The notes: a model not told the origin generated them from the sequence alone. DNA of 64,000 bases from an uncultured Gammaproteobacteria bacterium (GCA_963759005.1 CAVWXQ010000014.1:23655-87654), one strand, 5' to 3'. Shown: positions 1 to 40,276, counted from the first letter of the stretch. Translations and numbers: made by a program.

Positions 1-373
1 TCCTCAGCACACGTGCCAGGCTGATCTCGTCGAAGGCAGGGTGTTTGCGCCCGTTCTCGTGAACATGACCGTAGACCTTGGTCAGTTCGCTCCAGCGGAT
101 ATCCGGCGGCTGCACGCCACCCTCGGGGCGGCCCAGGCCATCGGGGCCGTGGCAACTCGCACAGGGCACAGCGCTGGCCGGCAACGATACCCCTTCCGTG
201 CCTACGATGGCGGTGATTTGCCCATCAGTAGAACTGGTACCCTGCAGGTAGATTTGTTTGCCCCGGCTCTGTGCCGCGTCCGGAGCTGCCGAAACCAGGT
301 CCGGACCAAGAACCATCGTTAGTCCGACCACGGCAAGTGCGAGTCGTTGGCGGATGCCGTATGCTGAGCTCAT
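1..373 (-). CDS. c-type cytochrome, partial (3' end runs off window start)
   Basis: Minus-strand ORF with ATG at 371-373. Translation MSSAYGIRQRLALAVVGLTMV... looks like a signal peptide and carries the heme motif CASCH. Not in the ORF track because it is open at the window edge. Confidence 0.6.
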   Translation of the reverse strand, partial: MSSAYGIRQRLALAVVGLTMVLGPDLVSAAPDAAQSRGKQIYLQGTSSTDGQITAIVGTEGVSLPASAVPCASCHGPDGLGRPEGGVQPPDIRWSELTKVYGHVHENGRKHPAFDEISLARVLR

Positions 374-1006
374 TCTGGACTTTCTTCCGCCAGGTCGCGC
401 ATCTTGTTCGCGATATCCGGCGGCGTAAGCATCGGCATCACACGGGTCCAGTGTTTGGTGATCGTGTTGCCAGCCAGCATCAGCGTGGTGTGCGATTCGA
501 TATCGGGCGTGTACTGGCCCAGCCGCTTGATCAGGAACTCGATGTTGTCTTTCTCACCCGTCAGGAAAATCCAGCGGCTCTCGTCCACGCTCTGCTTTTT
601 GGCGAACGCTTTCATCGCTTCCGGGGTGTCGCGCTCCGGGTCGACGCTGAGCGTCACGTACCAGACTTCATCCTTGATCGACGGCACCATCGCTGCGCGC
701 GCCTGCTTGAGCTTCTGTGCCTGCATCGGGCAGGCGAATTCGCAGTTGGTGAAGATGAAACTGATCAACACCACGCGGCCCTTCAACACGTCGCTGTAGA
801 AACGCTGTTTTTTGCCGTTCTGGTCGATCACCTCGGTGTCGGTGAAATAGTTGCGTGCCTTTTCCTCTGCTGCCGCGTCACTGGACGGTATTTGACACAG
901 CTGCAGCACTGGACAGGGGAACACTATCCTTAGACAGGACAGCTTGCGGAAGCAGTGCCAGGCCAAGACACAGCACTACTATTAGATTACTCAACTTTTT
1001 CATCAT
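370..1006 (-). CDS. SCO1/SenC family copper chaperone, probable frameshift near N-terminus
   Basis: Thioredoxin-like Sco motif FTNCEFACP in the 370..966 ORF. An ATG-ATG at 1006/1003 sits right after the upstream gene stop and encodes the signal/anchor MMKKLSNLIVVLCLGLALLP, but in another frame that ends in a stop. Confidence 0.65.
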
Positions 1007-1699
1007 TTAACCTCCTGCTGCAACGTTGCGTGCAGCCTGTAATGCATTGACCTGCTCCACCAGCCGGTCCGGACTCGGAAAACCGAAGAAACGTGACCAT
1101 TCGCCGGTCTGACCATCGCCGACCAGCACCATGGCCGGGTGGTTCTCGAAATTTGGTGTATAGGCGCCGAGGCCGTCGAGCACCTTGTCCATCGTCCGCT
1201 TGCCGCCGGTCAGCCAGATCCAGCCCGGTTCGGCCTTGTGGATAGCCGCGTAGGCCTTGAGCCGCTGCGGTGTGTCGCGCACGGGGTCGACGCTGACCGA
1301 AACCAGCACGACCTCGTCACCGAGCTGGTCGCCGAGCTTGTTCTGCACCTGGCCGAACACGGCCGAGATCACCGGACACACCGTGGTGCAACTCGTGTAA
1401 ATGAAATCCATGACCACGATGCGGTCGCCGATCACGTCGCTGACGAATTTCATTTCGTCGCCGTGCTGGTCCATCAGCACCAGGTCCAGCAGTTCCACCT
1501 CGGTAGTCTTGGCCGGTTCGGCCGGCTTGTTCATCATCGCCTTGTGGTGGGCGTGGGGATCGTCGTCGCCGCTCGCTGCGTGATCATGATGCTCGTGATG
1601 TTCGTGCCCGCTGTCTTCTGCTTGGACGTTCAGCGCAAGCGTACCCGCGGCAATAAACAACACCGCTAATATCATATAATTCTTACATTTATAAAACAT
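1007..1699 (-). CDS. SCO1/SenC family protein with His-rich N-terminal region
   Basis: Motif YTSCTTVCP (CxxxC). His-rich stretch HEHHEHHDHA...HAHH. Signal peptide present. Confidence 0.8.
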   Translation of the reverse strand: MFYKCKNYMILAVLFIAAGTLALNVQAEDSGHEHHEHHDHAASGDDDPHAHHKAMMNKPAEPAKTTEVELLDLVLMDQHGDEMKFVSDVIGDRIVVMDFIYTSCTTVCPVISAVFGQVQNKLGDQLGDEVVLVSVSVDPVRDTPQRLKAYAAIHKAEPGWIWLTGGKRTMDKVLDGLGAYTPNFENHPAMVLVGDGQTGEWSRFFGFPSPDRLVEQVNALQAARNVAAGG

Positions 1700-1725
1700 T
1701 TTTAATCTCCACTCTCAATTCTCAA

Positions 1726-1812
1726 GCCCCCTCTCCGCCTGGGCGAGGGTCAGGGTGAGGAAAAAATATTACCCCCTCATCCTGTCCTTCTCCCCAGGGG
1801 AGAAGGGACCTT
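1726..1812. repeat. REP-like multi-hairpin intergenic element, copy 1
   Basis: Stems ccctc/gaggg, gagggtcagggtgagg/cctcatcctgtccttc and ccttctcc/ggagaagg. ORF-track translations such as PSPLPKGEG come from the repeat, not from a gene. Confidence 0.5.
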
Positions 1813-1888
1813 CTTTCTGGCTGTCTCGCGTGCTCGCGGGTGCTTCGCAAACGCTCCAACCCAACGCACGCTCCTGCTTCCAGCGCGC

Positions 1889-1975
1889 CCCCTCTCCTTT
1901 GGGGAGAGGGCTGGGGTGAGGGGAAAAATTCCCTACCCTCGTCCGGCTCTTCTCCCAACGGAGAAGAGATCTTCT
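1889..1975. repeat. REP-like multi-hairpin intergenic element, copy 2
   Basis: ccctctcc-N5-ggagaggg and ctcttctcc-N5-gagaagag hairpins. About 65% similar to copy 1. Confidence 0.5.
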
Positions 1976-2011
1976 GCCGAACAGCACGCAGACGCACACC
2001 GCAGCGTAATT

Positions 2012-2974
2012 CTATTTGTCCTCCGGCCGCTCCAGCGCGATCAGGATCTCGACCTCGCCCTGCTCGCGCAGACGCACGATTTCCTGTTCAACCGCAGCTT
2101 CCATTCGTTCCTCGCGCATATGGTCTCGCAGCTTTTCTCGAATCTCGTCCAGCGGCAGCAGGTAGGCCTCCTTGTGCTCCTCCAGCTTCAGGATGTGCAC
2201 GCCGAAAGGGGTCTCCACCGGGTCCGATATTTCGCCGGGCTTCAGCACGAATGCGGCTGCTTCGAACGCCGGCGCCATTTCGCCGCGCTTGAACAGGCCG
2301 GTATCGCCGCCGTTCTGTCTGGTCGCATAATCATCCGAGAACTCGCGCGCGAGCTCCGCGAAATCTTCGCCCGCACGGGCCCGTTCCAGGATCGGCTTCA
2401 TCTGTTCGCGGATCGCGGCCTTGTCGTCGGTCGTGCCCATCGGCTTCCAGGTCAGCAGGATGTGGCGCACGCGCACCTGCTCCGGGAACGTTAGCCGGAC
2501 CTCATTGTCGCGATAGTATTGCTCGAGGTCTTCGTCGCTGACCTCGGCCACGCTCAGGCGGATGTCATCGAGGTATTTCTTGGCAGCGATCATGCGCCCC
2601 ACGTGCTCGCGGTAGCTCTCCGGCGTGAAACCCTCGCTCTGGATGCGCCGGTTGAATTCATCCGGCGTCTTGAACGGCTGGCTGATCTCGTCAATGGCCC
2701 TGTCGACCTCTGCATCGATGACCTCGATACCTTTGGTCTCCGCCGCCTGGCACACGAGCTCCTGCTTAATCATTTCGTCCATGGCTTCCTTGCGCAGCTT
2801 GGTTAGCCTGTTCAGGTGGTCGCCCCGCCCGGCCACGCTGATACCGTACGGGCGGCGGTATTCCTGGTAGAACGCGTTGAATCGCTCGTAGCTGACCTCG
2901 ACCCCGTTCACGCGCGCCGCGGTGCCGGGATAAATGCCCGTCGCCCAGACCGAGGCAACGGGCGTGACAAGCAA
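2012..2974 (-). CDS. PpiC/parvulin-type peptidyl-prolyl cis-trans isomerase (SurA/PrsA-like)
   Basis: Parvulin domain recognised in translation (for example ...GDTGLFKRGEMAPAFEAAAF...PFGVHIL). The signal peptide RILLLLLVTPVASVWA lies upstream in frame, but only a TTG start is available. Confidence 0.75.
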   Translation of the reverse strand: MLVTPVASVWATGIYPGTAARVNGVEVSYERFNAFYQEYRRPYGISVAGRGDHLNRLTKLRKEAMDEMIKQELVCQAAETKGIEVIDAEVDRAIDEISQPFKTPDEFNRRIQSEGFTPESYREHVGRMIAAKKYLDDIRLSVAEVSDEDLEQYYRDNEVRLTFPEQVRVRHILLTWKPMGTTDDKAAIREQMKPILERARAGEDFAELAREFSDDYATRQNGGDTGLFKRGEMAPAFEAAAFVLKPGEISDPVETPFGVHILKLEEHKEAYLLPLDEIREKLRDHMREERMEAAVEQEIVRLREQGEVEILIALERPEDK

Positions 2975-3013
2975 CAGCAGCAGAATTCGTAGCGCCGCAA
3001 AACCGCATGGCTG

Positions 3014-5068
3014 TCAGGAACCACCCTCTGCCGCAGCCTGTGGCGCGGTTTTGCCGCCCTGGGACGGCGTGCCCATCAGGCTGAAGAACGGTATGTCGTT
3101 ATACATCATCTTCTCCGACTGCGAGCCCACGAACACGTAATACGTTACCATGCGTTCGATTTTCACATCGGCCTCGTAGACGCCACCACCGAGCGATTTC
3201 GCCGGCACGACCGTGCGTCCGCGACCGTCTGAGCCGTAGTACAGCACCGTGACATCGGGAATATCATGCCGCGGCAGCGTGGTGCGTGGATCGGTCAGCT
3301 TGAACTTGACCTTGGTGCTCTCGCCCACCGGTATACGCCGATCGGTGTTCAGGTATTCGATGTCCATCGGCGCCGTGGTGACCTCGATGTCGGGATTGGG
3401 TTCCACCTTCGCGCTGAAGCAGTGCAGGAAGCGCGGTGTGTCCATCATGAAGGCGACGTCGTAGGTGCCCTCGATCGGGATCTTGACCCGCCCGACATAG
3501 ACGCCGGGCTCCTGTTCGCCGAGGCTGCGGTCGACGATCTCGATCGCGCGGGCCTCGTGGCCGTAGTTGCGGAACGCGCCCATGGGCGCGGCCATGCCCT
3601 CCATGTAATAATGAACCGTGCCCTCGGCCTGGTTCACGATGTAGGCCGCGGCCTGCTTGACCGAAGGCACGATGCTGTCGGCGATGCTGATGTCCGCGGC
3701 CGTGCCGGGCGGGCGCTGGCCGGCCGGGACGTAGGTGATCGGCGGGACGCTGTCCTCGTCGAGCTCGGACACCGGTATCAGGCCGACGTCCTGCGTGCCC
3801 AGCGAGCGCACATAGCCGTAGCCGCGCGTGAAGTTGACCTGGTACGGCTGCTTGCCGACGGTGATCGAGTGGGCGAGCTGGTCCTTGGAGGCGTCGATCG
3901 CGAACACCAGGTTCTCGATCGGGTTGACCACGAGCCCCCAGCGACCGTCCTGCGAGAAGCGCATCGGGCCCAGGCCCGGCTTCGCCTCGATGCGGGCGCG
4001 AATCTCGTGCTTGTCGGCATCGATCACGCTGATGATGCCGGTCTTGCCGTCGGCCACGTAGACCGCGTCGCCCAGCGGCGAGTACGCAATCGAGATCGGT
4101 ATCGGCCCGGTTTCGAGGTCCTTGACCTTCTTCAGGGACTGCACGTCGATCACCGAAACCGTTCCCGTGTCGCGGTTGGTCACGAACGCGTAACTGTCAT
4201 CTTCGTTGAACGTGATCTCGTGGTGCCCCGTGCCGGTCGCAATGAACGCGACCTTTTTGAGGCTCTCGGTATCGATCACGGTCACCCCGCTGTCGGCGGC
4301 TTCGTTCGAATTGTTGCCGACCCAGAGGTAGCGCTCGTCCCCCTGCAGCACGGCCCGCGTCGGGTTGTAGCCGGCCTCGATATTGTTCACGACCTTGAAC
4401 GTCTCGGTATCGACCAGCGCGACCATGTCGGCGGTCGGCATGGACACGAACAGGCGCTTCTGGTCTTCGGTCTTGGCCCAGTCCGCGCCGGGCCGGTCGA
4501 GGCTGATCTGGGCGAACAGGTTGGTGATGCCGGTAATGCCGACGGCAGGGTCGATCACCGAGATCGAATCATCGCGGTTCAAGACCAGCAGGAAGTGGCT
4601 GTTCAGGTCGATCATCGGGCGCACGCCGACGATGCCCTGCAGATAGGTCGAAACCCGGTCCTCGCAGCTCATCGGTCTTTCACCCTTGGCTTCCCAGGCC
4701 AGGGCCAGGTCCATCCAGGCGGCCGGGTAGCGTCCCTTGATCGGTTCGCCGGTGTTGGCATCGGTGATGCGGAAGCTCACGTCGGCCCAGTCGGCCGCAA
4801 TCACCTTGTCGGCCGTTGCATCCGTCGGACGCGTTGAGAACTCGACCACAACACCCTCGCGGCTGATGCGGTTAAGCTCGTCTTGTACAGCGGCGGCTTC
4901 GGAGCCAGCGTCTGCGCTTTGCGGCACGCTGGCGGTAGCAGCAGCGTTATCAGCGGCCGCGATGGTTTCGGCGCCGGCAGGGGTGCTCGGCGAGCAGCCC
5001 TGCAATGCGGTGGACATCAGCAGGGCAAGTGTTGCCCCCTTTAGTAAGGTATTCAGTGAAAATTGCAC
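3014..5068 (-). CDS. YVTN-family beta-propeller repeat lipoprotein
   Basis: Lipobox LQGC. Repeated roughly 40-aa units ending ...VTNRDTGTVSVID / ...YVADGKTGIISVID. Confidence 0.7.
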   Translation of the reverse strand: MQFSLNTLLKGATLALLMSTALQGCSPSTPAGAETIAAADNAAATASVPQSADAGSEAAAVQDELNRISREGVVVEFSTRPTDATADKVIAADWADVSFRITDANTGEPIKGRYPAAWMDLALAWEAKGERPMSCEDRVSTYLQGIVGVRPMIDLNSHFLLVLNRDDSISVIDPAVGITGITNLFAQISLDRPGADWAKTEDQKRLFVSMPTADMVALVDTETFKVVNNIEAGYNPTRAVLQGDERYLWVGNNSNEAADSGVTVIDTESLKKVAFIATGTGHHEITFNEDDSYAFVTNRDTGTVSVIDVQSLKKVKDLETGPIPISIAYSPLGDAVYVADGKTGIISVIDADKHEIRARIEAKPGLGPMRFSQDGRWGLVVNPIENLVFAIDASKDQLAHSITVGKQPYQVNFTRGYGYVRSLGTQDVGLIPVSELDEDSVPPITYVPAGQRPPGTAADISIADSIVPSVKQAAAYIVNQAEGTVHYYMEGMAAPMGAFRNYGHEARAIEIVDRSLGEQEPGVYVGRVKIPIEGTYDVAFMMDTPRFLHCFSAKVEPNPDIEVTTAPMDIEYLNTDRRIPVGESTKVKFKLTDPRTTLPRHDIPDVTVLYYGSDGRGRTVVPAKSLGGGVYEADVKIERMVTYYVFVGSQSEKMMYNDIPFFSLMGTPSQGGKTAPQAAAEGGS

Positions 5069-5530
5069 AGATCAACTCCTCGGTCGTTTTATCTATTTGT
5101 TCAGCGTGGAAAGTATTCCATGTCGGGTGGCGAGGTGTCGAAGAAGGATGTGAACCCTTTTTCACCATGCACGGCAGGTTGAAACATGGACTCTCCTTAT
5201 CGTTACGCTGTTACAGTCATATGATTATAAACTATCCGGTCATCACCAGGGCAGACTTGTGAACACGCTTTGATTCCCATCGCAGCAGTCAACATCGATC
5301 AGTTCTGATTGCCATCCTGGCCCGACAGTATTGCCGTGTTTCCTCAACACTGTGTTTGCCATATTACTGATGCCCATTAGAGGCGAGAGTTCAACCGCTT
5401 ATAGCTTGCTGAAGCTAAGCCTAAGTTGGGACATATTACAGCTGCGGTGCGCACGGCGCACCCTACGTTTCCTGTCACTTCTATCCAGCCCTCAGCCGGA
5501 TGTAATCGGTACGCATAGCGCAGCCTGCTT

Positions 5531-5559
5531 CAAAAAAATGGGTGCAGCCTCCTGGCTGC
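5531..5559 (-). terminator. rho-independent terminator after the multicopper oxidase gene
   Basis: On the minus strand: stop (5571-5573), 11 nt, hairpin gcagcc-agga-ggctgc, then acccattttttt. Confidence 0.5.
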
Positions 5560-5570
5560 ATCCACATGTT

Positions 5571-8500
5571 TTATTGTGCGGCCCGTCCGTTGGGCCGCAG
5601 ATGGAATGCTACTACGGCGTCGCTGGACTCCACCCTCAGGATACCGAACTGGCCGTTGCGGTTACCGTTGGGCTGTAGTCGCGGAACAGGTAGTCACCCT
5701 CAACCGCACCGCTACCACCGGCATTGAACAGGATCGGCCAGTGACCGTAGGCGTGGCCCATGCCTTCCTCGCCGCCCATGTACTTGGCCGATCGGGTTCA
5801 GACCGAGCGCGATGGAATCGACCGTGCCATGAGTCCAGACACAGGCCTGTCAGACCGAGGTCGTTCTCGACCCGGGCAGACGAACGGATCGCGCTGCCAC
5901 ACGTGGCCGTGCAGGATGAAGGTACCGTCACGGTCAGCCGAGGCGCCGTTGAGCACGTGGATGCGGCTGGCCTGCTCCGGCAGTCGCCCGGAACACCGGT
6001 GTTGCCGGATCACCCGCTGCGCTCACGCCCGGGATCGCCGGGACTGCGTTGGGCTCGCCGATGGTCAGCAGGTTGGCGTACATCGCCTGCGCGTTCGGGA
6101 TGCGCCGAAGCTGTTGGGCGTACCGGCGTTGCCGAAGGGCACATCCGGCGGCAGTTTGAAGCGGAACCAGCTCGGCTCCATGCCGTAGTTGAAGCCGGCG
6201 AAGCCGCTGTCCTCGGCGCCTTCACGGCCCAGCTCACCCTGGTGGATGTTGGCGATCGCGGTGCCGTCCTTCCAGCGGATATTGGCGATCTTGTGACCGA
6301 TCGCAGGTTCTCGCGGAAGTCACCGCCGGAACCGGCTCCACCGACAGGCGCGGTCACCGTGACCTGGGCGCGGGTCAGGCGTGTCCAGCCGGATTCAGCG
6401 TGCCGTCTGCATTGACCGCCATCTGGCCATCAGGCACCTGGGTGTCCTCTGCCACGGTTGAACCGGGCGGCAGGATCGACAGCGCACCGAACAGACCCTT
6501 CTGCGGCTGCTTGACGCGGTCCGCCGACAGCAGGTTGCTGGCGCCGAACTCGATCGGGGTAGCCACCAGCTCGAGCAGCTCGGTGTTGCCCTGCTGACCG
6601 ACCGTGTTGTAGGTCAGGTCGCCCGCGTACCAGCGGTAGGTCCTGGAACTCGCCGGGCGCGACGATCTGCTGGCCCGGCGCGTTCTGGCCGACCAGGACA
6701 CCGTCGTCACGGCTGGCGTCGTACTCGACCAGCTGGGCGTGCAGACCGACGTGGCTCGACGGCCGGATCAGGTTGTTGTTGAAGAAGTGCATCTCCGGCA
6801 ATGCCGGTGACCGGATCAACCTGGATCCTGCGCTTGACGATCCACATCATGTCCTGCCAGCCGGCCAGGTCGGGCGCGACCGCCGGGATGCGGTTGCGCA
6901 GCGTGGTCTCGATGCAGTCGCCCGCGTTGGCGCGCAGCGCGATCGGCTCGACCGGAGCAGTATCGCTCAGACGAACCGGACAGGTTGGTGCAGCCAATGG
7001 GTCAGCTAACGGCAGGCCCGTTACCGGATCCAGACAACCGGGGTCGGCCGGATCTATAACGACCAGATCACTGGTGCGGACGTACATCATCGCGGTCGGA
7101 TCGTTCAGCGGACCGTCGCCGCCCTGCAGCGTGACCGGCGGCTCGCCGCCTTCACCCGGCAGGGTCAGCGTCGGTACCGTGGTACCACGACGGTTGTAGA
7201 CCAGCGTGCCGCCGGCGGTATTCAGCGGACCACCGTTGTTGTCGCGATACCGTCACCGTTGGAGTCGCCACCCACGTTGGCCGGGATGGTCACACCGAGG
7301 TTGTTCGGCAGCACGTCGTTGGCCAGTACCGCGGTCACGTCATAAGCCGACCACGTTCGGCGGTCATCCGGGCAGACGCCGTTGAACTCGTTGGCGTTGA
7401 CCACGCGGCGGTTGCCGGCCGGGTTGCTCGGCAGCTCGACGAGGTCCTGTTGACGGTTGCCGTAGGCGCGCAGGATACCCCAGGGGCCGGTCCAGAAACC
7501 GTCGCGGGTGGCGTCGGTCGCGTACAGGTAGTCGACCGGTTGCCGACCTGATTCCGGATCCGGGTTGATCGGGATCTGCAGGCTGAACTGCTCGGAGATA
7601 CCGTGCGACTGGAAGTTACGCCAGCCGGAGTTCGGCGAGCGGCCGAAGCCGGAGCCGTTGGACAGCCACTTCATGCCGTGCACGGTCGCCTGGTGCTGCT
7701 CCTCGGTGGCGCCGACCTGGATCTTGATCTTGACGTCGTCACCCTCGTAGGCACGCATGATCGGCGTGATCGGGTCACCGCGCCGGCGGTCGCAGTTGAT
7801 GCCGTCGCCGGTGTTGCCCTGGCAGTACGTCGCCGGGGTCCGGTAGCCGGGCGGCATGTCGCCGAAGCTGGTGTTCAGCTGCGGGATCGCGCGGTCGCTG
7901 CGGCTCTGCAGCGCGAACGCGAGGTCGCCGGCTTCACCGGCCGCCTGGGTACCGTTCTGGCCGTCAGGACCGGCCGCGTTCGGATCGAACACGCGCAGGC
8001 CCACCGGCTCGTTGCGGTAGTTGACCACGAACATCGAGCTGTGGCTGATGTTGATGGCCTCGGCGCAGGGACGCGGCACGTTCGGATCGGCATTGCCGGC
8101 CGGTCCCGGGCAGACGCCCTCGGCCGTGACCATGTCCGGGAACGGCACCGACTTCAGCTTCAGCGGCGGATTGATCGCCTGCTGCCAGGTGTCCTGCATC
8201 GTCGGGCGCGAAGGCCGTGGTGACGTCGAACGCGAACGGGCTGATCGATGTGCGTCTGGACCGGACGACCATCCGCGATCGGCACCGACGTAGACACCGG
8301 CCTCGTAGGCGTGCTGGAAGTCGCTCATCTCGAAGTAGAACTCGCGATGATCCGGGATGTTCTCCGAGCCCGTGGTGCTACCCAGTGGCGCCTGGCAGGC
8401 GTCATGATGATCGCCTGCCAGGTGGTCGGGCCACCGTCGTGCACGCGGAGCCGGTCTGCCGTCGACCAGCGCGCCGATCTGCGCGCCGCTCTCGTTGTGC

Positions 8501-11500
8501 ACCCAGGTCGAACCGGCCGGCTCGGCCAGGATGGTCGAGTACAGGCCGATCTGCTGGAAGGTCGACGGACCGTAGTGGTCGTGCGAGAAGGTCAGGCCGA
8601 GGCCGCGGTCCACACCGGCCACGTTGACCAGCGGGTCCATCAGGATGCGCTGGATGTGGTGCGCGCGCCGCAGTATTCACCATAGGGCTCGACGTCACAG
8701 TGCCGCCGACACCGGTCACCGAAGAACGGATGCGGCTTGCGGCGTGCAGCTCGGTCACGCCAGCGCACGACGCTGCTGCCCGGGTCACCGGTGTCGATGG
8801 TCGGCACCGGGGCCAGATCGGTCAGGTCAACCGTGGTGGTTGGCCACCGCAGCGACCAGGTCGGGCGGCAGGTCGTCGGCCTTGCCGAGCGCGACCAGCA
8901 GGTCAACCAGGTTGGGCGCTTGACCGGCCAACGCGTTGAAGTGGTTGATCGCGTTGATGCGCTCCTCCACCATGCCCGGCGCCAGCGTGCCGTCCTCGTA
9001 GTTCCAGCCGTTGGCCGCACCGTCGTTGGTGGTCAGGTCCCACTTCGGCAGGTGGATGTGCTGACCGATGATGTCGGTCGGCGTGCGCACCTGGAAGTCG
9101 TCCAGCTCGAACTCCTTCGGCACCAGGTTGGTGTGCAGGATCTTGCCGCAGTCGAAGGTGTTGAAGCGCATCACCAGCGGCTCCGGCGGACGCTGCTTGG
9201 CGATGGTCGGCGCCACGTCGTCCCACAGCGCGATGATGCGCTCCTGCGGGTAGTGCTAGCCGACCTTGTTGAACACCGCGTCGATCTGCACGTTGGCGAC
9301 CTTGTAGGTGCGCGGGTTCTCGCAGGTCCAAGTCCGAGCGCGCCCATGTTGCCGCAGCGTACCCTGGTCGTTGTCACCATCGAACCAGTGGCCGATGACA
9401 CCAGCGATCAGCGGGGTGCCCGCGTCGTCGATGCAGGGATCCTGGAAGGGACCGCCCGGTACCGGCAGGGCACCGTTGAGCACGAAGCCGCCGCTGCCGT
9501 CGGGGTTGGCCACGCCGGTTGTCGCGTCACACAGAGCCTCCGAAACGGTGCCGTCACGGTTCTGCTTGTAGGTGTCGCGGCAGCGCACGGCGTGGTAGGC
9601 CATGCGACCTGCTCCAGTCGTCGGTGCCGATCTCGGGGAAGTACACCGGCTGGGCGACCTCGACTTCCTTGGCGAAGTCGAGGCGGCTGTTGGTGTCCAG
9701 CGAGAGGCCGCCGGAGGAGTAGCCGAGCAGGTTGTGGCGCGGCAGGCCGCCGTCCCAGCCGCCGGCCTGCGCCGGTGCGATATCCGTTCGCTGTCGCGCC
9801 GGCCTCGGTCAGCATGTCCAGCGGCGGGGTCGGCATGCGCTGGCCAACCGTGCCCTTCGGGCAGCGGAGTCGTCTGCATGTCGCGTCATCACGCCGCACT
9901 CGTTGCCGGCCAGCCAGAACGGGAAGCCGGGGCTGACGTCGTCGGCGGTACCGAGGTCAGCGTCGGGACCGGCCACGGCGTGCGATAGTCGATCACGGCC
10001 TGGCTCGGACGTTCGGGGATGCCATCCGGGCCTGTCCTGCCGCCCAGCACGCCGAAGTTACCGCGGTCGACCGCGACGACCTTGACCGGGGCAGGCATAC
10101 GGCATGGCCTTGCCGGGCAGCGGCACGATGGCCGGAATCGGCCAGCCGTCGGGCAGCTCGGCGTCGGGCAGCGCGCGGGCGCCGGCCGCCGGCTTACCGC
10201 TGCGCAGCGCCCAACGCGTGTCATGGAAGCCGTCACCGTCGGGTCGGCGTTGCCCGCCATCTGCATCACGGCGCTGTCGAGACGGCCAGCAGGCTGCCGG
10301 TTTCGAACGTGTCCTGGATGCGGATGTGGTACCACATGCCCTGCGCAAAGTGCGGGTAGAAGTGGCAGTGGAAGATCGCGTCGCCCGCGGTCTTGTTGCG
10401 GTTGCCGACGCCGCCGTTGTTTATCTCGTAGGTGTGGCCCGAGCCCGGCATGATTTCCTGGGCGTCCAGGTAGTTGGCGTTGTCGTCGTTCGGGTTGAAC
10501 AGCCACTGGTGGTTGTGCAGGTGGAAGATGTGCTGCTCGAACGCACCGACGTGGATGTTGCGGATCTTGACGAAGTCACCGGTGTAGGAGTGGTGCACGT
10601 TGGACGGGTCTTCCTGGTACAGCGCGTAGTTGCCCGGGATCGGCGGGTTGGCACCGATCGGCGATCACCGCCATTGGACCGGGACGTCGATCGTCGAACT
10701 GACGCCAGCAGGCCGGACGTCAGGATGTCGGTCGGGTCGCACTGCTCGATGCCGGTGTTGGCCGGGAAGTTGACCAGCATGGCCGGGTCGCCGACGGTCT
10801 GCGAGGCGAGGAAGAACTCCTCGTAGGCGCAGTCGGTGCAGTCGTGCATCGGGCCGGTGTGCAGGCGGTTGGCGATGATTTCGGAACCGATGCCGCCGGA
10901 GCCGTAGTTGATCATGAACTGGTCCTTGACGCCGGCCAGGGTGTAGTTCAGCACCGGGTTGCCGTACCAGCGCGGGAACACCTGCGAGTTGGTCTGCTCG
11001 TCGTGGAAGATCGAGGTGAACTCGCGGAACGGCTCGAGCCGGTTCGGCAGGCTCGGCACGTTGTTGCCGACGCTCTCCAGCGGGTAGGTGCTGGCCGGGA
11101 ACGTGTACCGTCGGCATTCGGGCCGGCGATGATCGCGTTGATGTCGCTGTGCACCAGCTCGTTGCCGGCTGTCAGCATGTTCAGGATCGGCAGGCCGGCC
11201 TTGCCCTCGGAGATCCAGGGCTCGACGTTCGGGTAGGTCGCCTCGTAGTCGATGATCGGCTGGCCGAGGCCGGAGTCGTGTCGGTGGTGGCCAGGCGCAT
11301 TTCTTCCTCGGTCACCATGCTGCGGTACATGCGCGCACCGACGGGCTGGACGTTCAGCTCGCCGAACATGCCGATGCCGAGGTTGCCGCTGTTCTGCTCG
11401 CTGCCGAGGGTGGCGCCGTAGCTGTTGATCACGAAGGCGCCTTCGTGCGGGGTGTACAGGTTGTAGGTCCTGGCTCTCGTTCGGTGCTGCCATGCCGAGG

Positions 11501-12069
11501 CCGCAGTTGCGCTGTCCGGCGTCAGTCGGGCCAATGTTCGCGCCGGGGTTGTTACCGACCATGCTGCCGTCGTCGGCGATGTCATCGACCAGCTTCGGTG
11601 CCCGAGGCGTGGAAGCCGGCGCAGCGGCCCGCGACCTGGTCGTTGTTGATCAGCTGGTCCTGCTGCGCATTGTTCGGATTGGCGACCGGCGCCAGCAGGT
11701 TGGTGAAGTTGACCGTCAGGCAGCTGCCCGCGACCGAACGCACCACCAGCGGACGGGGCCGCTTGTCGGGGCGCAGCTCGACGTTGCCTGCGGTACAGGC
11801 TGCCCTGCGAACAGGGCACGCCGCGTCGGTCCCGTCGATGACATCGCGCTCGAGCGCGTAGGTGATCCAGTTCGGGTTCTGCGCACCGAGGCGGTTGAAC
11901 ACCGTCGGGTTGTCCAGCACCACCACGTTGGCGGTTATGGTATTGCTGTACAGCTAACCGCTGCCTGCGCACCCGGCACAAACAGCATGGACAGCATTAC
12001 CATGCATAATATAACAACAGCGAGCAAAATATTATTGTTCGCCATTGGACTGGTGGCTTGAGTTTTCAT
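5571..12069 (-). pseudogene. giant multicopper oxidase (MnxG/MofA-like), about 2160 codons, at least 12 frameshifts
   Basis: ATG at 12067-12069 with RBS ggagag and signal peptide MKTQATSPMANNNILLAVVILCMVMLSMLFVPGAQA. Cupredoxin-like pieces are spread over three frames, including FHCHFYPHFAQGMWYH (T1 Cu site), IFHLHNHQW, IGQHIHLPKWD and HGMKW. Confidence 0.7.
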
Positions 12070-12117
12070 TATAGCTCTCCTATTTCTTTTTGGAGCAACG
12101 GATTCTGTCTAAACCTG

Positions 12118-12154
12118 TTGACCCACATTTGTGTTGACCATTTGACAATGACCG
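12118..12154. promoter_or_regulatory. TTGACC/TTGACA direct repeats in AT-rich region upstream of the oxidase gene
   Basis: ttgaccN10ttgaccN2ttgacaN2tgacc within a 290-bp 35%-GC island between GC-rich genes. Confidence 0.25.
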
Positions 12155-12401
12155 GTGAACTTGTTTCAGCTGAATTTGCCGTTTTCGAGTACTAAAAAAC
12201 AACGGAAATGTCGCAAGTCCAACATTTAGACCAAGTATAAACATATCGAATGTGAGCAAATTTGGTAACCGACTATAGGTACTGTTTGTACCTGATAAAA
12301 AGTCCAGTTTTAAGCAGTACTTTAGTACAGTAAGCTAGCCACAATGGGGGATGCGGGCATGGCAGGGTTTTATTTTACAGGCAAAAAAACCCGACTATAA
12401 T

Positions 12402-13121
12402 CTACTCACTTACCGAGGTGGTGCTGAACAAATAGCCAAGCCAGGGTATATCCATCAACAGCGGGATACCCGCCCTGCCCTCGTTGCGAGTTTCGAGGAT
12501 CAGGCCACCGAGCACCACAGTCGCACCGCTCTGCACCACGACACTGCTGCTGATGCTGCGCTGTGAAATCGCCACATTGCCGCCGCCGCCGACAGCCGGC
12601 TCTGAACCGGGAAGGCTGACTTCCTGGCTGATTTCCATGGTGACCTGGCCGCCGGCGTTGATGCGCGGAGTGACGGACAACAAGGTGCCGGTGTCACGAA
12701 ACTGCACCTCAGAGACCACCGGGGCATCCGGGTTTGTGGTACTCTGGGAACTGCGCACGGTGACCGGTATCTGGTCACCCACGCGGATATTCGCGGTATG
12801 GTTGTCCAGCACCATGATCTGCGGCGCCGAGAGGAATTTGACATCGGTCTTACTGGCCAGCAGGTCAATAAACATCCTGGCATCATTGCTGCTCGAAAAC
12901 GTGGCCAGTGTCAGGCCATCACCACCAGCAGCGGTGGGCACCGGTGCGTTGAAGCCCAGACTGGTGTTGCCGCCGGAGAGGAACCAGCGCACGCCGTAAT
13001 CCAGCGCATTGGAAAGGGTCACCTCGGCGATGGTGGCCTCGATCAGCACCTGGCGAGGCTGCTCATCGAGCTGTTTAATGACGGCTTCGATGCCACGGTA
13101 ATCCCTGGGACTGGCCAGCAA
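12402..13121 (-). pseudogene. secretin (GspD/PilQ family) C-terminal domain fragment
   Basis: VLIEATIAEV, SAPQIMVLDNHTANIRVGDQIPV and IPLLMDIPWLGYLF match secretin C-domain motifs. Frame closed by tag/tga immediately upstream, so the N-terminal two-thirds are absent. Confidence 0.75.
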
Positions 13122-13127
13122 TCGTCA

Positions 13128-13476
13128 CTACCTGAAAACGACCAGCGAAGCGCTGGCCGCCGCCAGCCTGCAAGGTATCGTCAAGAAAATCGCGGCATCG
13201 ACAGGCATGGAAGTGCTAAGCACCCAGATCCTGCCTGCAGGCGAGCAAGAGGGTTTCAAGCGTGTCACCCTGAAGGTTCGTATGCGCGGCGTGCTGGAAA
13301 ACACAGTAAAGGCATTCCACGCCATGGAGACCGGCCAGCCGTATCTGTTTCTGGACAATGTCTCAATCCGCGGCCTTGCCCGGCGTACAGGCAACTATGG
13401 CAAAGGCAAAGTCAACTATGATCAAATGCTGAATGTGGATTTTGATCTCATCGGCTACATGCAGCAGCAATCATGA
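13128..13476 (+). pseudogene. PilO/GspM-like C-terminal fragment
   Basis: Open frame ...LQGIVKKIAASTGMEVLSTQILPAGEQEGFKRVTLKVRMRG...YLFLDNVSIRG with no N-terminal TM part. Abuts the inverted secretin fragment. Confidence 0.35.
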
Positions 13477-13530: not shown

Positions 13531-13947
13531 TTGTCGGCTGGTGTACTGGCAATCGAGAGCGGTAACCTGATCGAGACACAAGGCCATGCCTCGCCCGAAA
13601 CACAGCCTGCTGTCGATCCGATTGAGCAGGCAAAATTCACTGCATCAGGGATTGCCGCATTCAGCGAAATCACCGAACGACCGTTGTTCAGGGAAGGTCG
13701 TGAGCCACCGAGCGAACCCACAGCCACACCCGTGGCAGCCAGGCCGTCACCACTACGCCTGAAGCTGGAAGGCGTGGCCATTACACCTGGATCAAAAATT
13801 GCCATACTGCGCGATCTCAGCAACAACAAGATGCTGCATCTCGAAACTGGCATGAAACACCAGGGCTGGGAACTCACCTCTGTTACCGACACCGTCGCCA
13901 CATTCAAGCTTGGCGAACAGAGCCAGGAACTGACGCTAAAAAAATAG
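13531..13947 (+). CDS. PilP / GspC-HR-like pilus/secretion assembly protein
   Basis: ITERPLF motif followed by a beta-rich C-terminus ...LEGVAITPGSKIAILRD...LTSVTDTVATFKL. Confidence 0.4.
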   Translation: MSAGVLAIESGNLIETQGHASPETQPAVDPIEQAKFTASGIAAFSEITERPLFREGREPPSEPTATPVAARPSPLRLKLEGVAITPGSKIAILRDLSNNKMLHLETGMKHQGWELTSVTDTVATFKLGEQSQELTLKK

Positions 13948-14013: not shown

Positions 14014-14263
14014 CACATCAAGCCCGGATATTTCATAGGAACGCTGCTAATCTTGCTTAACATTATGATTATTATAAGAAATAGCAGTATATTAGAGAAG
14101 TACACTATGTACCTGACAACGCTATGCAGTTTTTGGAAAAATATCAGCGGCCATTTTGTACGATACCCCTGTAACCATAGCTACGGCTATGCTTTTCGGC
14201 GAATAGTACAAACTGACTCACTGATATTTCCCCAAAATTCTGCATTCCTATGAAATATCCGGG
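14014..14263 (+). mobile_element. MITE copy 1 (about 250 bp, 19-bp TIR CCCGGATATTTCATAGGAA)
   Basis: Perfect terminal inverted repeats. Near-identical copies at 21903, 33239 and 40022. Confidence 0.7.
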
Positions 14264-14289
14264 CTAGCACAATCGAAGCAATGCGCCAG

Positions 14290-14660
14290 GCATGATAACG
14301 AAGTGTCAATTTTTTGACACACGTAATGTCATACTTATTACTCAAAAATATAAAGCTATCCGACTATCAACAATGTATATTTCCTGTCTTTATGACGAAT
14401 TGTTTTACACATTACGTATAAACGATATACTTATATTGCTTTTCCTATTGATAATTATAATATATTTATATCTAGCACATATATTGCCTATTTTTCATAT
14501 GCATCAGGCATGACAAAGAGCGCCAGCTTTGACATACAAAGTGCCAGATATGGCATACGAATGTCATGTTTAGTATACAAAAATATACTTAATATTGTTT
14601 ATACTATTGATAATTATAATATATTTATATCTGGCACATATATTGCTTTTATTTAGAAGC
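14290..14660. repeat. degenerate tandem duplication (about 160-230 bp units) in AT-rich region
   Basis: tattgataattataatatatttatatctRgcacatatattgc at 14447 and 14607, and gcatgaYaa...gtcat... at 14292 and 14512. Confidence 0.4.
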
Positions 14661-14745: not shown

Positions 14746-15408
14746 ATGGCGCCCAAAAAAAAGGAGTTATCGATGTCTAAAACTATCCACGTTGCGATTT
14801 GTGATTATTGCTCTACAATTCGATACGGAATTCAGCATATTTTAAACAGGGATGCCAATATCAGCCTGGTTGCTGAAGCAAGCTCACCCAAAGAAATACT
14901 CACCAAATTTACCAGCCTTGATCTGGATGTCATCCTGATTGATCCTGGTGAAAACAGACAGACAGGGTTCGATTGTTTACGTAAATTTCGTGAATTAAAG
15001 CCCAATACCAAAACCATCCTCTTTACCAGTAGTTATAGCGATAAAAATCTGATAGTAGAAGCCATTCAAACAGGCGTTCAAGGTTACCTGCTCAAACAAG
15101 CTGAAAGTGAGGAAATCATAAATGCCATTTATGCTGTCGATCAGGGTGACACGATCCTGGCACCCAGTGTAACAACAATATTATTAGAATATATGCAACA
15201 TAAACAACACCAACTGCAAGCAAACCTAAGTAATCGTGAGCAAGAAGTTCTGGACCAGATAGCCCAGGGCAAAACCAATGGCGACATAGCGAATGCACTA
15301 TTCATCAGTATACGTACTGTTAAATTTCATGTCAGCTCTATTTTGGCAAAATTGAATCTAAAAAATCGAACCGAAGCTGCTTTATGGGGCAATAAGTCCC
15401 CCTGTTAA
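14746..15408 (+). CDS. NarL/FixJ (LuxR-type) response regulator, atypical receiver acid pocket
   Basis: REC domain plus C-terminal HTH LSNREQEVL...IRTVKFHVSSIL. The receiver N-terminus reads DYCS where DD is expected. Confidence 0.75.
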   Translation: MAPKKKELSMSKTIHVAICDYCSTIRYGIQHILNRDANISLVAEASSPKEILTKFTSLDLDVILIDPGENRQTGFDCLRKFRELKPNTKTILFTSSYSDKNLIVEAIQTGVQGYLLKQAESEEIINAIYAVDQGDTILAPSVTTILLEYMQHKQHQLQANLSNREQEVLDQIAQGKTNGDIANALFISIRTVKFHVSSILAKLNLKNRTEAALWGNKSPC

Positions 15409-21830: not shown

Positions 21831-21902
21831 CTACACACTAACCATTACCAACACCTTGTTATTCTGTGGATTGAATAACTACATTGAGGAATCTCTAATT
21901 AA

Positions 21903-22318
21903 CCCGGATATTTCATAGTAATGCAGAATTTTGGGGAAATATCAGTGAGTCAGTTTGTACGATTCACCGATAAAATCGTAGGAACGATTTTACATGAGCG
22001 AAGCGAGCCCGTAGGGTTAATGGGCAGGAGGCCCGTAATTAAAGCATAGCCGTTCGGCACACCGCTTCGCTGCTCCATGCATTGCCCTACTACCGTACTT
22101 CCTATACATAAGCTATGGTTACAGGGGAATCGTACAAAATGGCCGCTGATATTTTTCCAAAAACTGCATATACTGCCATGGATGGCAGGTAGTAGGGCAA
22201 TGCAGGAGCTATTGCCGAGCATTGTCAGGTACATAGTGTACTTCTCTAATATACTGCTATTTCTTATAATAATCATAGCGTTAAGCAAGATTAGCAGCGT
22301 TCCTATGAAATATCCGGG
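21903..22318 (-). mobile_element. MITE copy 2 with about 170 bp of nested insertions
   Basis: Same TIRs in inverse orientation. Contains extra internal segments that are inverted repeats of each other (gcattgccctactacc / ggtagtagggcaatgc). The terminal ...GGGTT overlaps the TAA stop of the ada-like gene. Confidence 0.7.
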
Positions 22319-23716: not shown

Positions 23717-24022
23717 TTATAACTCACCCGACTCGTCCACTTCAGTAATCCAGTACATCCCCTTACCTGTAAACGATATACCCGAACCACGAAGCTCATC
23801 CAGTAAAGTTTTCGCGCGGGCATCTTCCAGAATCACATCAACACGCACCTGAGGCACATAACCCACCACTTTATCCCGAGCCGATAAAAAAGCATCCTGC
23901 TTTAATTGCGAGCTATGCTCTTCGATATGACTGAACATAAAACTGTCCAGCTGCAGGCTACGCAAACAGTCAGCCAGTTCCTGTTGCAGTGATGTATGCA
24001 CCACGATGGATAATTTTTTCAT
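23717..24022 (-). CDS. DUF3240-like P-II-fold protein, typical 3' partner of HME-RND pumps
   Basis: About 100 aa. Position overlaps the RND stop by 4 nt. I recall this family as a small P-II-like protein downstream of czc/cus pumps. Confidence 0.5.
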   Translation of the reverse strand: MKKLSIVVHTSLQQELADCLRSLQLDSFMFSHIEEHSSQLKQDAFLSARDKVVGYVPQVRVDVILEDARAKTLLDELRGSGISFTGKGMYWITEVDESGEL

Positions 24023-27000
24023 GCTGAGACCTCCACTTTTTTCACCCGCATCTTTTTCTCTAATGCTTCTTCTACCCAGGCATAGAGTGCCGGCAGTAAA
24101 ATCAATGTCAGGATGGTTGAGGTAAACAGGCCGCCAATCACCACGACGGCGAGTGGCTGCTGCAGTTCAGAGCCGGGGCCGGTCGCTGTCAGCAGGGGCA
24201 ATAAACCAAAGCTGGCTATCATGGCTGTCATCAGTACCGGTCTTAATCGTCGTTCAGCGCCCCGTCTTACCGCTTGCTGAATACTTAAACCCCTTTGCCT
24301 TAGTTGATTGAAGTAACTCACCATCACCACACCATTGAGTACCGCAACACCAAACAGGGTAATAAAACCTACCGATGCCGGTACCGACAGATAAAGTCCG
24401 GAATAATACAAACTGACGACACCGCCAATCATAGCGAAAGGGATGTTCAGAATAATCACGCCTGCCTGTAACAGCGAACGGAAAGTGGTAAACAACATGA
24501 AGAAAATAAGCACTATGGCAACAGGTACCACCAGAGCCAGTCTGGTTGATGCACGCTGCTGGTTTTCGAACTGACCACCAAAGGTAACATAATAACCCGT
24601 AGGCAAGTCCACTTTTTCTTCTATCTTACGACGTACTTCCTCGACAAAACTGACCACATCGCGGGCCTCTACATTTGACTGGATAACCACCAGACGTTTG
24701 GCCGATTCACGTATAATCTGAACCGGTCCATCCACCACTGTCACTTCGGCCAGGTGTCCCAGAGACACTTTAGTACCATTGGGTAAACTCACCAGCATTT
24801 TTTTAATGGCTGCCGCTGAGCTGCGATCTTTTTCCTGATAGCGCACCAGGATGCCGACACGACGATTATTTTCCAGTAATTCGGTCACCACCTGGCCACC
24901 GACTGCGGTTTCTACTAACCTGTTAATGTCTTCAACATGGATGCCATAACCGGAAATCACGTCCTGATTGATGTCGATCTGTAAATATTTCTGCCCTGAA
25001 ATATCAGCACGAAACACGTCTACTGCACCCGTTATATTATTCACCAGTTGTTCAATTTCGATGGCTTTCTGCTCCAGTACAAACAGATCATCACCATAAA
25101 GTTTGATTGCCATGGCAGAACGCACACCGGTTAGCATTTCTGATACGCGCATATCGATTGGCTGACTGAAGGCGTAATCAACATTATCAAAAGGGGCTAA
25201 TTTTTCACGCAAATTTTCCTGGAACTGTTGCAATGAAATATTCCATTCTTCCTGTGGTTTTGTCACCAGAAAATTATCGGTCTGATTTAAGCCCATTGGA
25301 TCCATGCGTAATTCATCAGCGCCTGTTCGCGAGGTGACGCCAATCACTTCAGGCAGCTCCATCATGGCTTTTTGAATCGGTGCGTCCATTTCCAGCGATT
25401 TTTCCAGGGTGATACTGGGATCTTTTTCTAACAGGATAACGGTACTGCCCTCATCCATGATCGGCATAAATTCTTTACCGATATGAGGGAACAGGGTTGC
25501 TGTTGCAAACAGCGCCACCAGCGCTAACCCTACCGCCGTTTTTCTATAACGTAGCGCCCAGTTCATCGCCGGTAAATAAATGATTTTCAGCACTCGCATA
25601 AGACGACCATCTGTGTCTGCATTTTGGGCCTCGGCCAGCGCATTTTCGGCCTGCTTTTCATCGTCCTGTTTTTTCGCCTGTTCATTCGGTTGATTTTGGA
25701 CATGAAGTTTCATAAAGAAACTGGCCAGCACTGGAATCACGGTTAATGACATTATTAACGAACCAATCAGGGCAAAAGTAATGGTAATGGCCAGCGGCGA
25801 AAACATTTTCCCTTCCAGTCCGGTCAGGCTAAACAATGGCAGAAACACAGCCACAATAATCAGTATGCCGGAAATAACCGGCGACGATACTTCCAGCACC
25901 GCGCGATAAACAAGGTGCAATTTATTAACACCTGCAGGCGCTTTACTGAAATGGCTATGAATGTTCTCCACCACCACGACGGCGGCATCAACCAGAATGC
26001 CAATAGCGATTGCCAGCCCGCCTAGTGACATCAGGTTGGCAGATACATTGAACAGCTTCATCATAATGAAGGTAAACAACACGGTTAACGGCAAAATTAA
26101 TGCCACCGTTAACGCACTGCGGATATCACCCAGCATAATAATTAACACCAGCAATACCAGCACAACGGCTTCACCCAGTGCTTTTTCCACCGTCCATACT
26201 GCCTTGGTAATCAGCTCGGTTCGATCATAAAACGATTCGATGCTAACGCCTTCAGGCAAAATAGCTTTTAATGTTTCCAGTGCTTTTTTAGTTTCTGCTA
26301 CCGTCTGTAAACTGTTGGCGCCTTTACGCAACAGAACCAGTCCGGTGACGACTTCACCCTCGCCATCAGCAGTTACCGCGCCATAACGTGTCATACTGCC
26401 AACGCGCACCTCGGCTACATCACTAATATGTATCGGTTCACCATAAAGTGTGCGTACGGTTATGTTCTTAATGTCGTCCACGTTGTTTAATTTTCCGACC
26501 GTACGCACCAGTAATACTTCATCGTTCTGGTTGATGCGATCACCGCCAGCATTGCGGTTACTCTCCATCAGAGCATGCTCTATTTCGTCGATACTGATGC
26601 CGTGTTTAACCAGCGTTTTCGGTTTGATAACTACTTCATAGGTACGAACTTCACCGCCCAGTGAATTAACATCTGCCACCCCTTCTACTTTGCGCAGATG
26701 CGGACGGATGACCCAGTCCTGCAAACTGCGCAATTCCTGGTTGCTATAACTCTTGCCGCTATCATCGCCGCTGTTGGTGTCGTAGTTATGGCCGATAATG
26801 CGATACATAAATATCTCACCCAGTGGGGTGGTAATGGGAGCCAGACCACCTTCAATATCGGCCGGTAATGAATCCCAAACCTGGTTGAGTCGCTCTGTCA
26901 CCAGATTACGCGCCAGATAAATATCCATGTCATCTTCAAAGTCGACAACAATCACACTTAATGCATATTTTGTTGTTGATCTAAGTACGGTCTGTCCGGG

Positions 27001-27228: not shown

Positions 27229-27229
27229 T

Positions 27230-33238: not shown

Positions 33239-33395
33239 CCCAGATATTTCATAGGAACGCTACAGCTTTAACTTAACATTATGATTGTATTGAGAAATAT
33301 TGGCATATTAGCAAAGCACACTATGTACCCGATAACGCTCGGCAATTGCTCCTGCATTGCCCTACTACCTGCCATCCATGGCAGTATATGCAGTT
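33239..33395 (+). mobile_element. MITE copy 3 (5' portion only, variant with internal insert)
   Basis: Left TIR cccagatatttcataggaacgc plus an internal segment identical to the insert in copy 2. The right end is missing. Confidence 0.5.
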
Positions 33396-40021: not shown

Positions 40022-40276
40022 CCCGGTTATTTCATAGTAACGCTGCTAATCTTGCTTAACACTATGATTATTATAACAAATAGCAATATATTAGAAAAAC
40101 ACACTATGTACCTGACAACGCTATGCAGTTTTTGGAAAAATATCAGCGGCCATTTTCTACGATTCCCCTGCAACCATAGCTACGGCTATGCTTTTCGGCG
40201 AATCGTACAAACTGACTCACTGACCGATTTTAATAAAACATGACCCCATCGTCTGCATTCCTATGAAATATCCGGG
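40022..40276 (+). mobile_element. MITE copy 4
   Basis: Both TIRs intact. Terminal ...GGGTT overlaps the TAA stop of ORF 40277-40564. Confidence 0.7.

Follow-up and report, generated by a model that had tools for sequence, protein, structure and literature searches.

A predicted Pseudomonas putida-type MnxG manganese oxidase operon with remnants of a type II secretion system in a low-GC gammaproteobacterial contig

The stretch of DNA analysed here, called the window, covers 64,000 nucleotides (nt) of a contig from an uncultured Gammaproteobacteria bacterium (GCA_963759005.1, CAVWXQ010000014.1:23655-87654). We consider it likely that positions 1 to about 13.95 kb form one GC-rich module, combining an MnxG-type manganese oxidase operon with remnants of a type II secretion system (T2SS), within a gammaproteobacterial chromosome of 44% guanine-plus-cytosine (GC) content, and that the many breaks in the oxidase frame are more readily attributed to error than to decay. 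The system is of a known kind, a proteobacterial MnxG operon accompanied by its T2SS, found in an uncultured host that is new; there it is compositionally foreign and structurally degraded, and its oxidase is probably also mis-sequenced locally. As written in the contig, the module cannot work. To an earlier note on the same DNA, the present analysis adds the linkage to the T2SS, a corrected island boundary, the T2SS deletion and an analysis of the frameshifts.

The oxidase occupies positions 5628 to 12069 on the minus strand, a span of 2147 codons. Its broken frame was followed by a frameshift-aware dynamic-programming alignment of window positions 5600-12100 to the intact proteins of two related loci, L005 (a Chromatiales metagenome-assembled genome, or MAG) and L001 (NIOZ-UU29). 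The frame-corrected protein has 2133 amino acids (aa), is 68% identical to that of L005 over its full length and 44% identical to Pseudomonas putida MnxG, also over the full length (2175 aligned columns). The NCBIfam model NF041487, 'manganese-oxidizing multicopper oxidase MnxG', matches it end to end with 1890 bits and is its sole NCBIfam match. Intact sequences reach 1948 (L005), 1925 (L001) and 3895 bits (P. putida, L054) on the same model, whose equivalog cut-off is 3100 bits; the corrected oxidase lies under this cut-off and is a homologue outside the equivalog. With the patterns HxH, HxxHxH and HCHxxxHxxxxM as a test, the corrected translation contains the copper motifs HLHNH, HCHFYPHFAQGM, HIHLPKWD, HDHYGPS and HGHVWQ. 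Intact homologues drawn from 79 genome loci each consist of one frame, 1950-2200 codons long. The seeming fragmentation of homologues into pieces of 300-800 aa was an effect of the search, which gave no matches longer than about 1.75 times the query, and not biology. In one gammaproteobacterial MAG (L008, 1526-14710), two giant oxidase open reading frames (ORFs) of 2151 and 2117 codons stand in tandem; the gene can duplicate.

The earlier note had described an MnxG-type oxidase of about 2160 codons. The size holds, but the single open frame does not, the gene being interrupted by 31 frameshifts and one stop. The MnxG-type assignment is upheld by NF041487 and by the parts of the operon, while the Bacillus Mnx type, implied in that note through an analogy with MnxC, gives way to the P. 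putida type of about 1950-2200 aa. Comparison with known oxidases gave a full-length match to MnxG, and not matches to oxidases of CueO or PcoA size only, the outcome that the note had held to argue against manganese oxidation.

Sco chaperones and multicopper oxidases are both copper-handling proteins, and the window carries elsewhere a CzcA/CusA efflux pump and an MbnP/MbnH pair. The block could accordingly be taken for a copper-resistance or homeostasis locus, with an oxidase of the CueO, PcoA or CopA type served by Sco chaperones. We regard this as very improbable. An oxidase of about 2140 aa that aligns end to end with MnxG, and has MnxG as its only NCBIfam match, does not have a CueO-like architecture; the Pfam Cu-oxidase_2 match is weak (19.4 bits, under the 20.4-bit cut-off) and falls on one 110-aa fragment. 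Moreover, the operon and its T2SS context are those of mnxG.

The operon runs from the oxidase through a YVTN beta-propeller lipoprotein, a SurA-like parvulin and two Sco proteins to a fusion of cytochrome c with a binding protein. When the accessory proteins of the window were searched by tblastn in the 79 genome loci, nearly all had a YVTN homologue directly after the oxidase, with the Sco, Sco and SurA-like genes next; in about 30 Pseudomonas loci, the accessory homologues are 40-47% identical. For P. putida GB-1, the mnxG operon is predicted to contain, besides mnxG, genes for a beta-propeller lactonase-family protein, SCO-family proteins, a protein with a SurA N-domain and an ABC-type binding protein (PMC8218464). 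Because its list of parts equals that of the GB-1 operon and recurs across loci, the block is assigned to the P. putida-type MnxG operons, with Mn(II) oxidation as its predicted activity.

The individual genes agree with this assignment, and the earlier gene list (cytochrome c, two Sco proteins, a parvulin, a YVTN lipoprotein and a giant oxidase) proved correct against Pfam and NCBIfam. The YVTN/YncE-type lipoprotein (3014-5068, minus strand) matches Pfam Cytochrom_D1 and YNCE and the TIGR02276 YVTN repeat, and has an LQGC lipobox. The SurA-like parvulin peptidyl-prolyl isomerase (2012-2974, minus) matches Pfam Rotamase (PPIC, 9.9e-30) and SurA_N_3; its gene differs from that of contig L080 by about 1% mismatches (9 in 800 reliable columns), with no gaps. 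Next come the two Sco/SenC copper chaperones, the first (1007-1699, minus; Pfam SCO1-SenC, 2.7e-18) with a His-rich N-terminal stretch and belonging to a 90%-identity cluster of 7 members, the second (370-966, minus; SCO1-SenC, 4.6e-19) being kept after the first in most loci. Positions 1-372 (minus) hold the 5' part, and thus the N-terminus, of the cytochrome c and periplasmic-binding-protein fusion, cut at the window edge; its translation is continuous and includes a CASCH haem motif. Whole homologues of this gene, of 529 aa and with Cytochrom_C and Peripla_BP_6 domains, lie directly after the second Sco gene in L081 and L082.

Between the SurA and first Sco genes, positions 1726-1975 carry two GC-rich hairpin units resembling repetitive extragenic palindromes (REP), arranged as direct repeats (1726-1814 and 1887-1975), inside a stretch that aligns contiguously to L081 and L082. 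These units translate to peptides of the GEGWGEG and PSPQPSP types and create a spurious 91-aa ORF. This ORF (1722-1997) was considered as a 'cytochrome c' and rejected, having no Pfam match and being built of the REP-like repeats; the real cytochrome c is that of 1-372.

The composition of the block sets it apart from the rest of the window. GC content, measured per kb across the 64 kb, is 0.56-0.68 over positions 1-12000, 0.52-0.54 between 12 and 14 kb, and thereafter varies between 0.34 and 0.51 with a mean of 0.44, giving 64% for the block against 44% for the host part. Taken per gene, GC at third codon positions (GC3) reaches 0.74-0.90 within the block; for 15 genes from the low-GC part the range is 0.32-0.55. 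In tetranucleotide usage, the correlation of the block is r = 0.34-0.52 with the low-GC part, against 0.92 within the low-GC part, and 0.82-0.85 with the GC-rich Chromatiales-like loci L004 and L005. By GC, GC3 and oligonucleotide usage alike, the block deviates from its host as an island would. High GC is not intrinsic to the oxidase gene, since in L001, a relative of 52% GC, the oxidase has only 53-57% GC. Every real gene of 1-12069 lies on the minus strand.

That the block is GC-rich, GC3-rich and transcribed from the minus strand only had been stated before and stands, as does the low GC beyond 14 kb, which is 44% on average (34-51%) rather than about 40%. The end of the block at 12069 had to be revised. 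The GC-rich zone extends to about 13947, its last part (12.4-13.95 kb, 54-61% GC) holding the T2SS remnants, and the fall to low GC occurs at about 13.95-14.02 kb; GC and tetranucleotide profiles confirm a block far from the host signature and place the step at about 13.95 kb, not at 12069. Upstream of the oxidase, an AT-rich spacer (12070-12410, about 340 bp, 40% GC) has no similarity to the upstream regions of relatives or to the tail of L089, a contig of a related strain; it contains no sigma-54-like site and nothing convincing for sigma-70 either.

Beyond this spacer, positions 12411-13117 (minus) hold an internal fragment of the T2SS secretin gene gspD (Pfam Secretin, 2.9e-43), lacking the N-terminal domains and the last 46 or so codons. 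It is 89% identical in aa sequence to P0137, the C-terminal piece of the gspD of L089, and 81% identical to L089 at the nt level with 0 gaps. Homology to L089 stops after '...LFSTTS', at about window position 12411 and 46 codons short of the end, with the AT-rich spacer beyond. On the other side, positions 13126-13476 (plus) encode the C-terminal part of gspM (Pfam T2SSM_b, 5.6e-22, profile positions 6-111 of 111), followed by a small ORF in the gspN position (13531-13947, plus, 55% GC), the last GC-rich gene. Both are syntenic with contig L083; the small ORF has no Pfam or NCBIfam match. Set against the core set of gspD, E, F, G-K, L and M, only the gspD fragment, the gspM C-terminus and this small ORF remain, while the related strains L083 and L089 carry gspD-K/L/M.

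A three-way comparison of the window with L083 and L089 places the gspD (minus)/gspM (plus) junction at 13110-13128, with a CTGGCCA/CTTGCCA microhomology. As gspD is natively divergent from gspE-F-G-H-I-J-K in L089, the junction is explained by a plain deletion, and an inversion or a chimeric fold-back at 13117/13128 is rejected on the same native layout. The comparison points to a single microhomology-mediated deletion from within gspD through gspE-L into gspM, which would have removed everything from the 5' part of gspD to the 5' part of gspM. The 3' end of gspD would have been replaced by the AT-rich spacer.

The presence of secretion genes beside the oxidase is a recurrent feature of its relatives. 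Where full flanks were available, 37 of 60 loci have T2SS genes within 10 kb of the oxidase. The order gspD then oxidase, on the same strand, is seen in L005, L061, L072, L121 and L157, with gspD directly upstream in L005; in L001 the oxidase operon is placed between gspE and gspD, and Pseudomonas loci have a GspE homologue some 7 kb downstream of the oxidase. In P. putida GB-1, secretion of the Mn-oxidising factor requires a Gsp-related pathway, as de Vrind and colleagues (2003) are quoted in PMC3056050. The secretion genes next to the oxidase belong to the same module, the operon following immediately downstream of what is left of its dedicated T2SS.

The sharp change of GC and tetranucleotide usage could also arise if the block came from another GC-rich organism and had been joined to the contig by the assembler, an alternative already raised in the earlier note. 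The same can be said of the absence of host repeats from 1-12414, of the two breakpoints lying 700 bp apart (12411 and 13117), of the locally error-like oxidase segment and of the lack of an independent near-identical contig across 12.0-12.5 kb. Such a chimera is nevertheless improbable. The window is part of a 141,219-bp NCBI/ENA contig bearing both GC-rich and low-GC genes, and an independent assembly, L083 (contig_11485, ERZ25039508), follows it with 92-97% identity from 24078 down to 13110, crossing the same boundary between the response regulator, the gspN-position ORF and gspM before continuing into an intact gspM-L-K-J-I of 56-62% GC. The GC step at about 13.95 kb is therefore real in this lineage. 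A chimera is unlikely, given that L083 keeps this gene order across the boundary and that several relatives (L005, L061, L072) natively have gspD ahead of the oxidase. The junction at 13117 is, besides, the one predicted by a simple deletion in a divergent gspD/gspE-M layout, with its microhomology, and error-free accessory genes beside the oxidase do not fit a low-coverage foreign tail.

A horizontal origin of the module from a GC-rich Chromatiales-like lineage is plausible by composition. The acquisition proposed earlier thus keeps its compositional argument, without the marks of an integrase, a tRNA gene or direct repeats. Several observations limit the case for a horizontal origin. No tRNA was found in the window scan and no integrase among the scanned ORFs; there are no flanking direct repeats and no repeats common to 1-12414 and the rest of the window; an Rfam scan of the window gave no matches. 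The island's far end is beyond the window. For the join between gspD and the oxidase at 12411, no near-identical contig gives independent support. Downstream of gspD, L089 has different DNA, seen over the 353 bp that remain of its contig. Host repeats inside the island were considered as proof of co-residence, and none is present in 1-12414. The nearest named relatives of island genes and of host genes are both uncultured Gammaproteobacteria.

The state of the oxidase frame raises a separate question. Between 5.6 and 12.1 kb, the gene appears as about 18 overlapping minus-strand ORF fragments, and 31 frame changes are needed to restore it, with L005 or L001 as guide alike. Of three apparent in-frame stops one is genuine, a TGG>TAG change at 9256-9258 whose surroundings match L099 and L103 exactly. 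Most homologues that could be judged have an uninterrupted frame of about 1950-2200 codons, which the window oxidase does not. Copies in the nanopore MAGs L051 and L031 are likewise broken, that of L031 by 4 frameshifts. A single frameshift near codon 125 also occurs in L103, a short-read JGI contig (1279-1953).

Close relatives with intact oxidase frames are found in L080 (805 aa, partial) and L099 (2135 aa), two contigs assembled from short reads of other samples and sharing 98.9% identity. Against them, the YVTN/SurA region of the window shows 96-97% identity and one gap, and the oxidase 84-87% identity and 118-328 gap columns; indels that are not multiples of 3 number 39 in the oxidase, 0 in YVTN and at most 1 in SurA. 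There are zero frameshifts in 5 kb of accessory genes, no indel in the dead 705-nt gspD fragment compared with L089, and no frameshift against L083 in low-GC genes totalling about 9 kb. Well-aligned indels of 1 bp number 16, nine of them insertions and seven deletions; five are compatible with slippage, the neighbouring base being duplicated or deleted, and none of the 16 falls in a run of three or more. No segment varies more between strains than the oxidase, which diverges from L099 by 11%, against 1-3% for the neighbouring genes.

In a five-sequence test over 5061 sites, L103, L091 and L095 served as outgroups to polarise the substitutions. The window branch carries 154 substitutions (40/36/78 by codon position) against 306 (74/63/169) on the branch of the intact L099; it is the shorter of the two, with statistically the same codon-position bias. 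Substitutions accumulated on the window branch in a neutral phase are estimated at 32 (95% confidence interval -41 to 89). When made against L080 alone, the codon-position test did not separate decay from error.

On these data we lean toward an error of consensus or polishing confined to the strain-variable oxidase gene, because substitutions are not in excess and because the indels affect single bases, show +1 and -1 in balance and fall outside homopolymers. Consensus building or short-read polishing could have failed only at this segment. Spontaneous indels stand to substitutions at about 1:5 to 1:10 in mutation-accumulation studies, and natural pseudogenes have roughly 2-4 frameshifts for each nonsense mutation. 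Since 31-39 indels are here accompanied by at most about 90 neutral substitutions and by one nonsense codon, the gene does not bear the signature of normal decay as given by these ratios. Moreover, the corrected oxidase scores as well on NF041487 as its intact relatives (1890 against 1925-1948 bits). Such frameshift rates do occur for technical reasons, since 26 frameshifts are found in the homologue of L051 (5500-14700), a 73%-GC Microflora Danica nanopore MAG of another lineage.

Some facts speak against an error of this kind. The indel zone coincides with the borders of the gene, as would be expected if selection were relaxed on the gene as a whole; the first indel falls 124 nt into the gene, and 45 nt separate the last from the stop. 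Real decay is also compatible with the missing cognate T2SS and with the TGG>TAG change, and no sigma-54-like promoter is present upstream of the oxidase, unlike in Pseudomonas. In L051 the frameshifts also strike neighbouring genes, where the neighbours in the window are clean, so that L051 shows only that such error rates exist. If the contig assembly were Illumina-only or HiFi, the explanation by error would fail.

A genuine, heavily decayed pseudogene, with about 31 genomic frameshifts acquired before or after the loss of the T2SS, is accordingly a possible, though clearly less probable, explanation, in which the accessory genes would be kept under selection or refreshed by recombination. 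The confinement of the breaks to one gene, the conserved context of the genuine stop, the T2SS deletion with its microhomology and truncated gspD 3' end, the missing sigma-54-like site and the frameshift in the short-read copy of L103 would all suit it. So would the low-GC part, clean save for one split symporter gene, which argues against a generally poor assembly. It is opposed by a window branch shorter than that of the intact sister, with equal codon-position bias, by an estimate of 32 neutral substitutions, with 89 as its upper bound, that falls short of what 31-39 indels would require by the ratios above, and by a frameshift-to-nonsense ratio of 31:1 where 2-4:1 would be usual. Single-base, balanced indels outside homopolymers, 5 kb of accessory genes without a frameshift and a dead gspD fragment without an indel point the same way. 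That the frameshifts are truly genomic, in the form of context-independent +1/-1 indels with hardly any substitutions beside five clean accessory genes and a clean gspD fragment, we find rather unlikely. If true, it would imply a gene-targeted, indel-dominated inactivation or a repeated selection for loss of just the oxidase, and not ordinary neutral decay.

The low-GC DNA has features of its own. A family of miniature inverted-repeat transposable elements (MITEs) of about 245 bp, with 24-nt terminal inverted repeats (AGCCCGGATATTTCATAGGAACGC), is present at 14021-14265, 40022-40279, 22111-22318 (with 21900-21973) and 33239-33395. The copy at 14021-14265, of the low-GC host's repeat family, lies exactly at the GC boundary, none is found in the GC-rich block, and another site is occupied in L083. 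Just beyond, AT-rich duplicated units of about 160 bp (14281-14654) precede a LuxR-type response regulator (14746-15408); those at 14433-14495 and 14592-14654 are 89% identical and may be repeated regulatory sites. The sole other broken gene seen in about 50 kb of low-GC DNA is a sodium:solute symporter (SSF/ActP-like), split in two frames on the minus strand (46528-47244 and 47295-48260; Pfam profile positions 1-252 and 289-406).

The metal-related genes of this part comprise a CzcA/CusA-type heavy-metal pump of the resistance-nodulation-division (RND) type with an outer-membrane factor (24019-28573), the pump having its closest named relatives in uncultured Gammaproteobacteria and Woeseiaceae, and a cluster at 55468-61336 with an MbnP-family gene (60413-61336), an MbnH-like di-haem peroxidase (59061-60371) and a second di-haem cytochrome c peroxidase (55468-56904). 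The MbnP/MbnH cluster represents a pair of the copper-acquisition type that belongs to the host DNA and has no connection with the island. A 716-aa multihaem cytochrome with MtrC/c7-like matches is encoded at 30225-32375. Paralogous small genes (33994-34380 and 38992-39501, 76% nt identity) stand on either side of an AT-rich, gene-poor 4 kb, the stretch at 34-38 kb having no ORF of more than 130 aa.

From what is known of the family, the oxidase of intact relatives, of about 2100 aa, would enter the periplasm by means of a signal peptide, the SurA-like isomerase would aid its folding and the Sco proteins would supply its copper. The T2SS would then carry it to the cell surface, where it would turn Mn(II) into Mn(III/IV) with O2 as the electron acceptor. 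Annotators should describe the block as an MnxG-type Mn(II) oxidase operon with a T2SS remnant, and not as a copper-resistance locus or a misassembly; the contig as written predicts no Mn oxidation from this locus. A gene of 6.4 kb with a frameshift every 200 bp or so in an otherwise clean contig is a warning to data users. Giant, GC-rich and strain-variable genes are open to selective corruption in MAGs, and pseudogene calls in them need read-level support. The coupling of the oxidase with the T2SS, seen across Gammaproteobacteria, Betaproteobacteria and Myxococcota-like lineages (the 37 of 60 loci above), fits the genetics of one Pseudomonas strain and could be used as a genomic signature for surface-exported Mn oxidases.

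Among known systems, P. putida GB-1's mnxG operon (PputGB1_2447) resembles the window in its oxidase, 44% identical from end to end, and in its set of accessory genes. The order differs, SurA preceding the Sco genes in the window and following the binding protein in Pseudomonas, and so does the state of the locus, the window oxidase scoring 1890 bits (below 3100) with a broken frame, a deleted T2SS and no sigma-54 site found upstream. In the Pseudomonas loci L054 and L042, a sigma-54-type site, TGGCATACACCTTGCT, stands about 60 nt upstream of mnxG and fits the published promoter dependent on sigma-54 and integration host factor (IHF); L092 and L096 have weaker candidates, and the window spacer has none. 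The regulators mnxS and mnxR were not seen in the window. The Gsp-related (Xcm) pathway of GB-1 (de Vrind et al. 2003) is likewise a dedicated T2SS genetically tied to a Mn oxidase; unlike it, the window keeps only the gspD fragment, the gspM C-terminus and the small ORF, with gspE-L deleted.

The operon order of the window is shared with uncultured GC-rich gammaproteobacterial loci (the Chromatiales MAG L005, the metagenome contigs L099/L080 and L001 of NIOZ-UU29). In YVTN/SurA, L080/L099 and the window share 96-99% identity. Unlike the window, these have open oxidase frames of 2130-2190 codons and a complete gspD, and their whole contigs are of 59-70% GC (52% for L001), without the low-GC flank. 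A more remote comparison is offered by the Mnx system of Bacillus sp. PL-12 (MnxE/F/G, with a Sco-like MnxC), which also unites a Mn(II)-oxidising multicopper oxidase with a Sco chaperone in its operon. The MnxG proteins of Pseudomonas (PpMnxG) and Bacillus (BaMnxG) are distant homologues, with 25% identity (bioRxiv 10.1101/2022.11.10.515945). The Bacillus enzyme is much smaller (MnxG of about 1200 aa), works with the small MnxE and MnxF subunits and is found at the spore surface, whereas the oxidase of the window is of the proteobacterial type of about 2100 aa, accompanied by a beta-propeller protein, a SurA-like protein and a T2SS export context.

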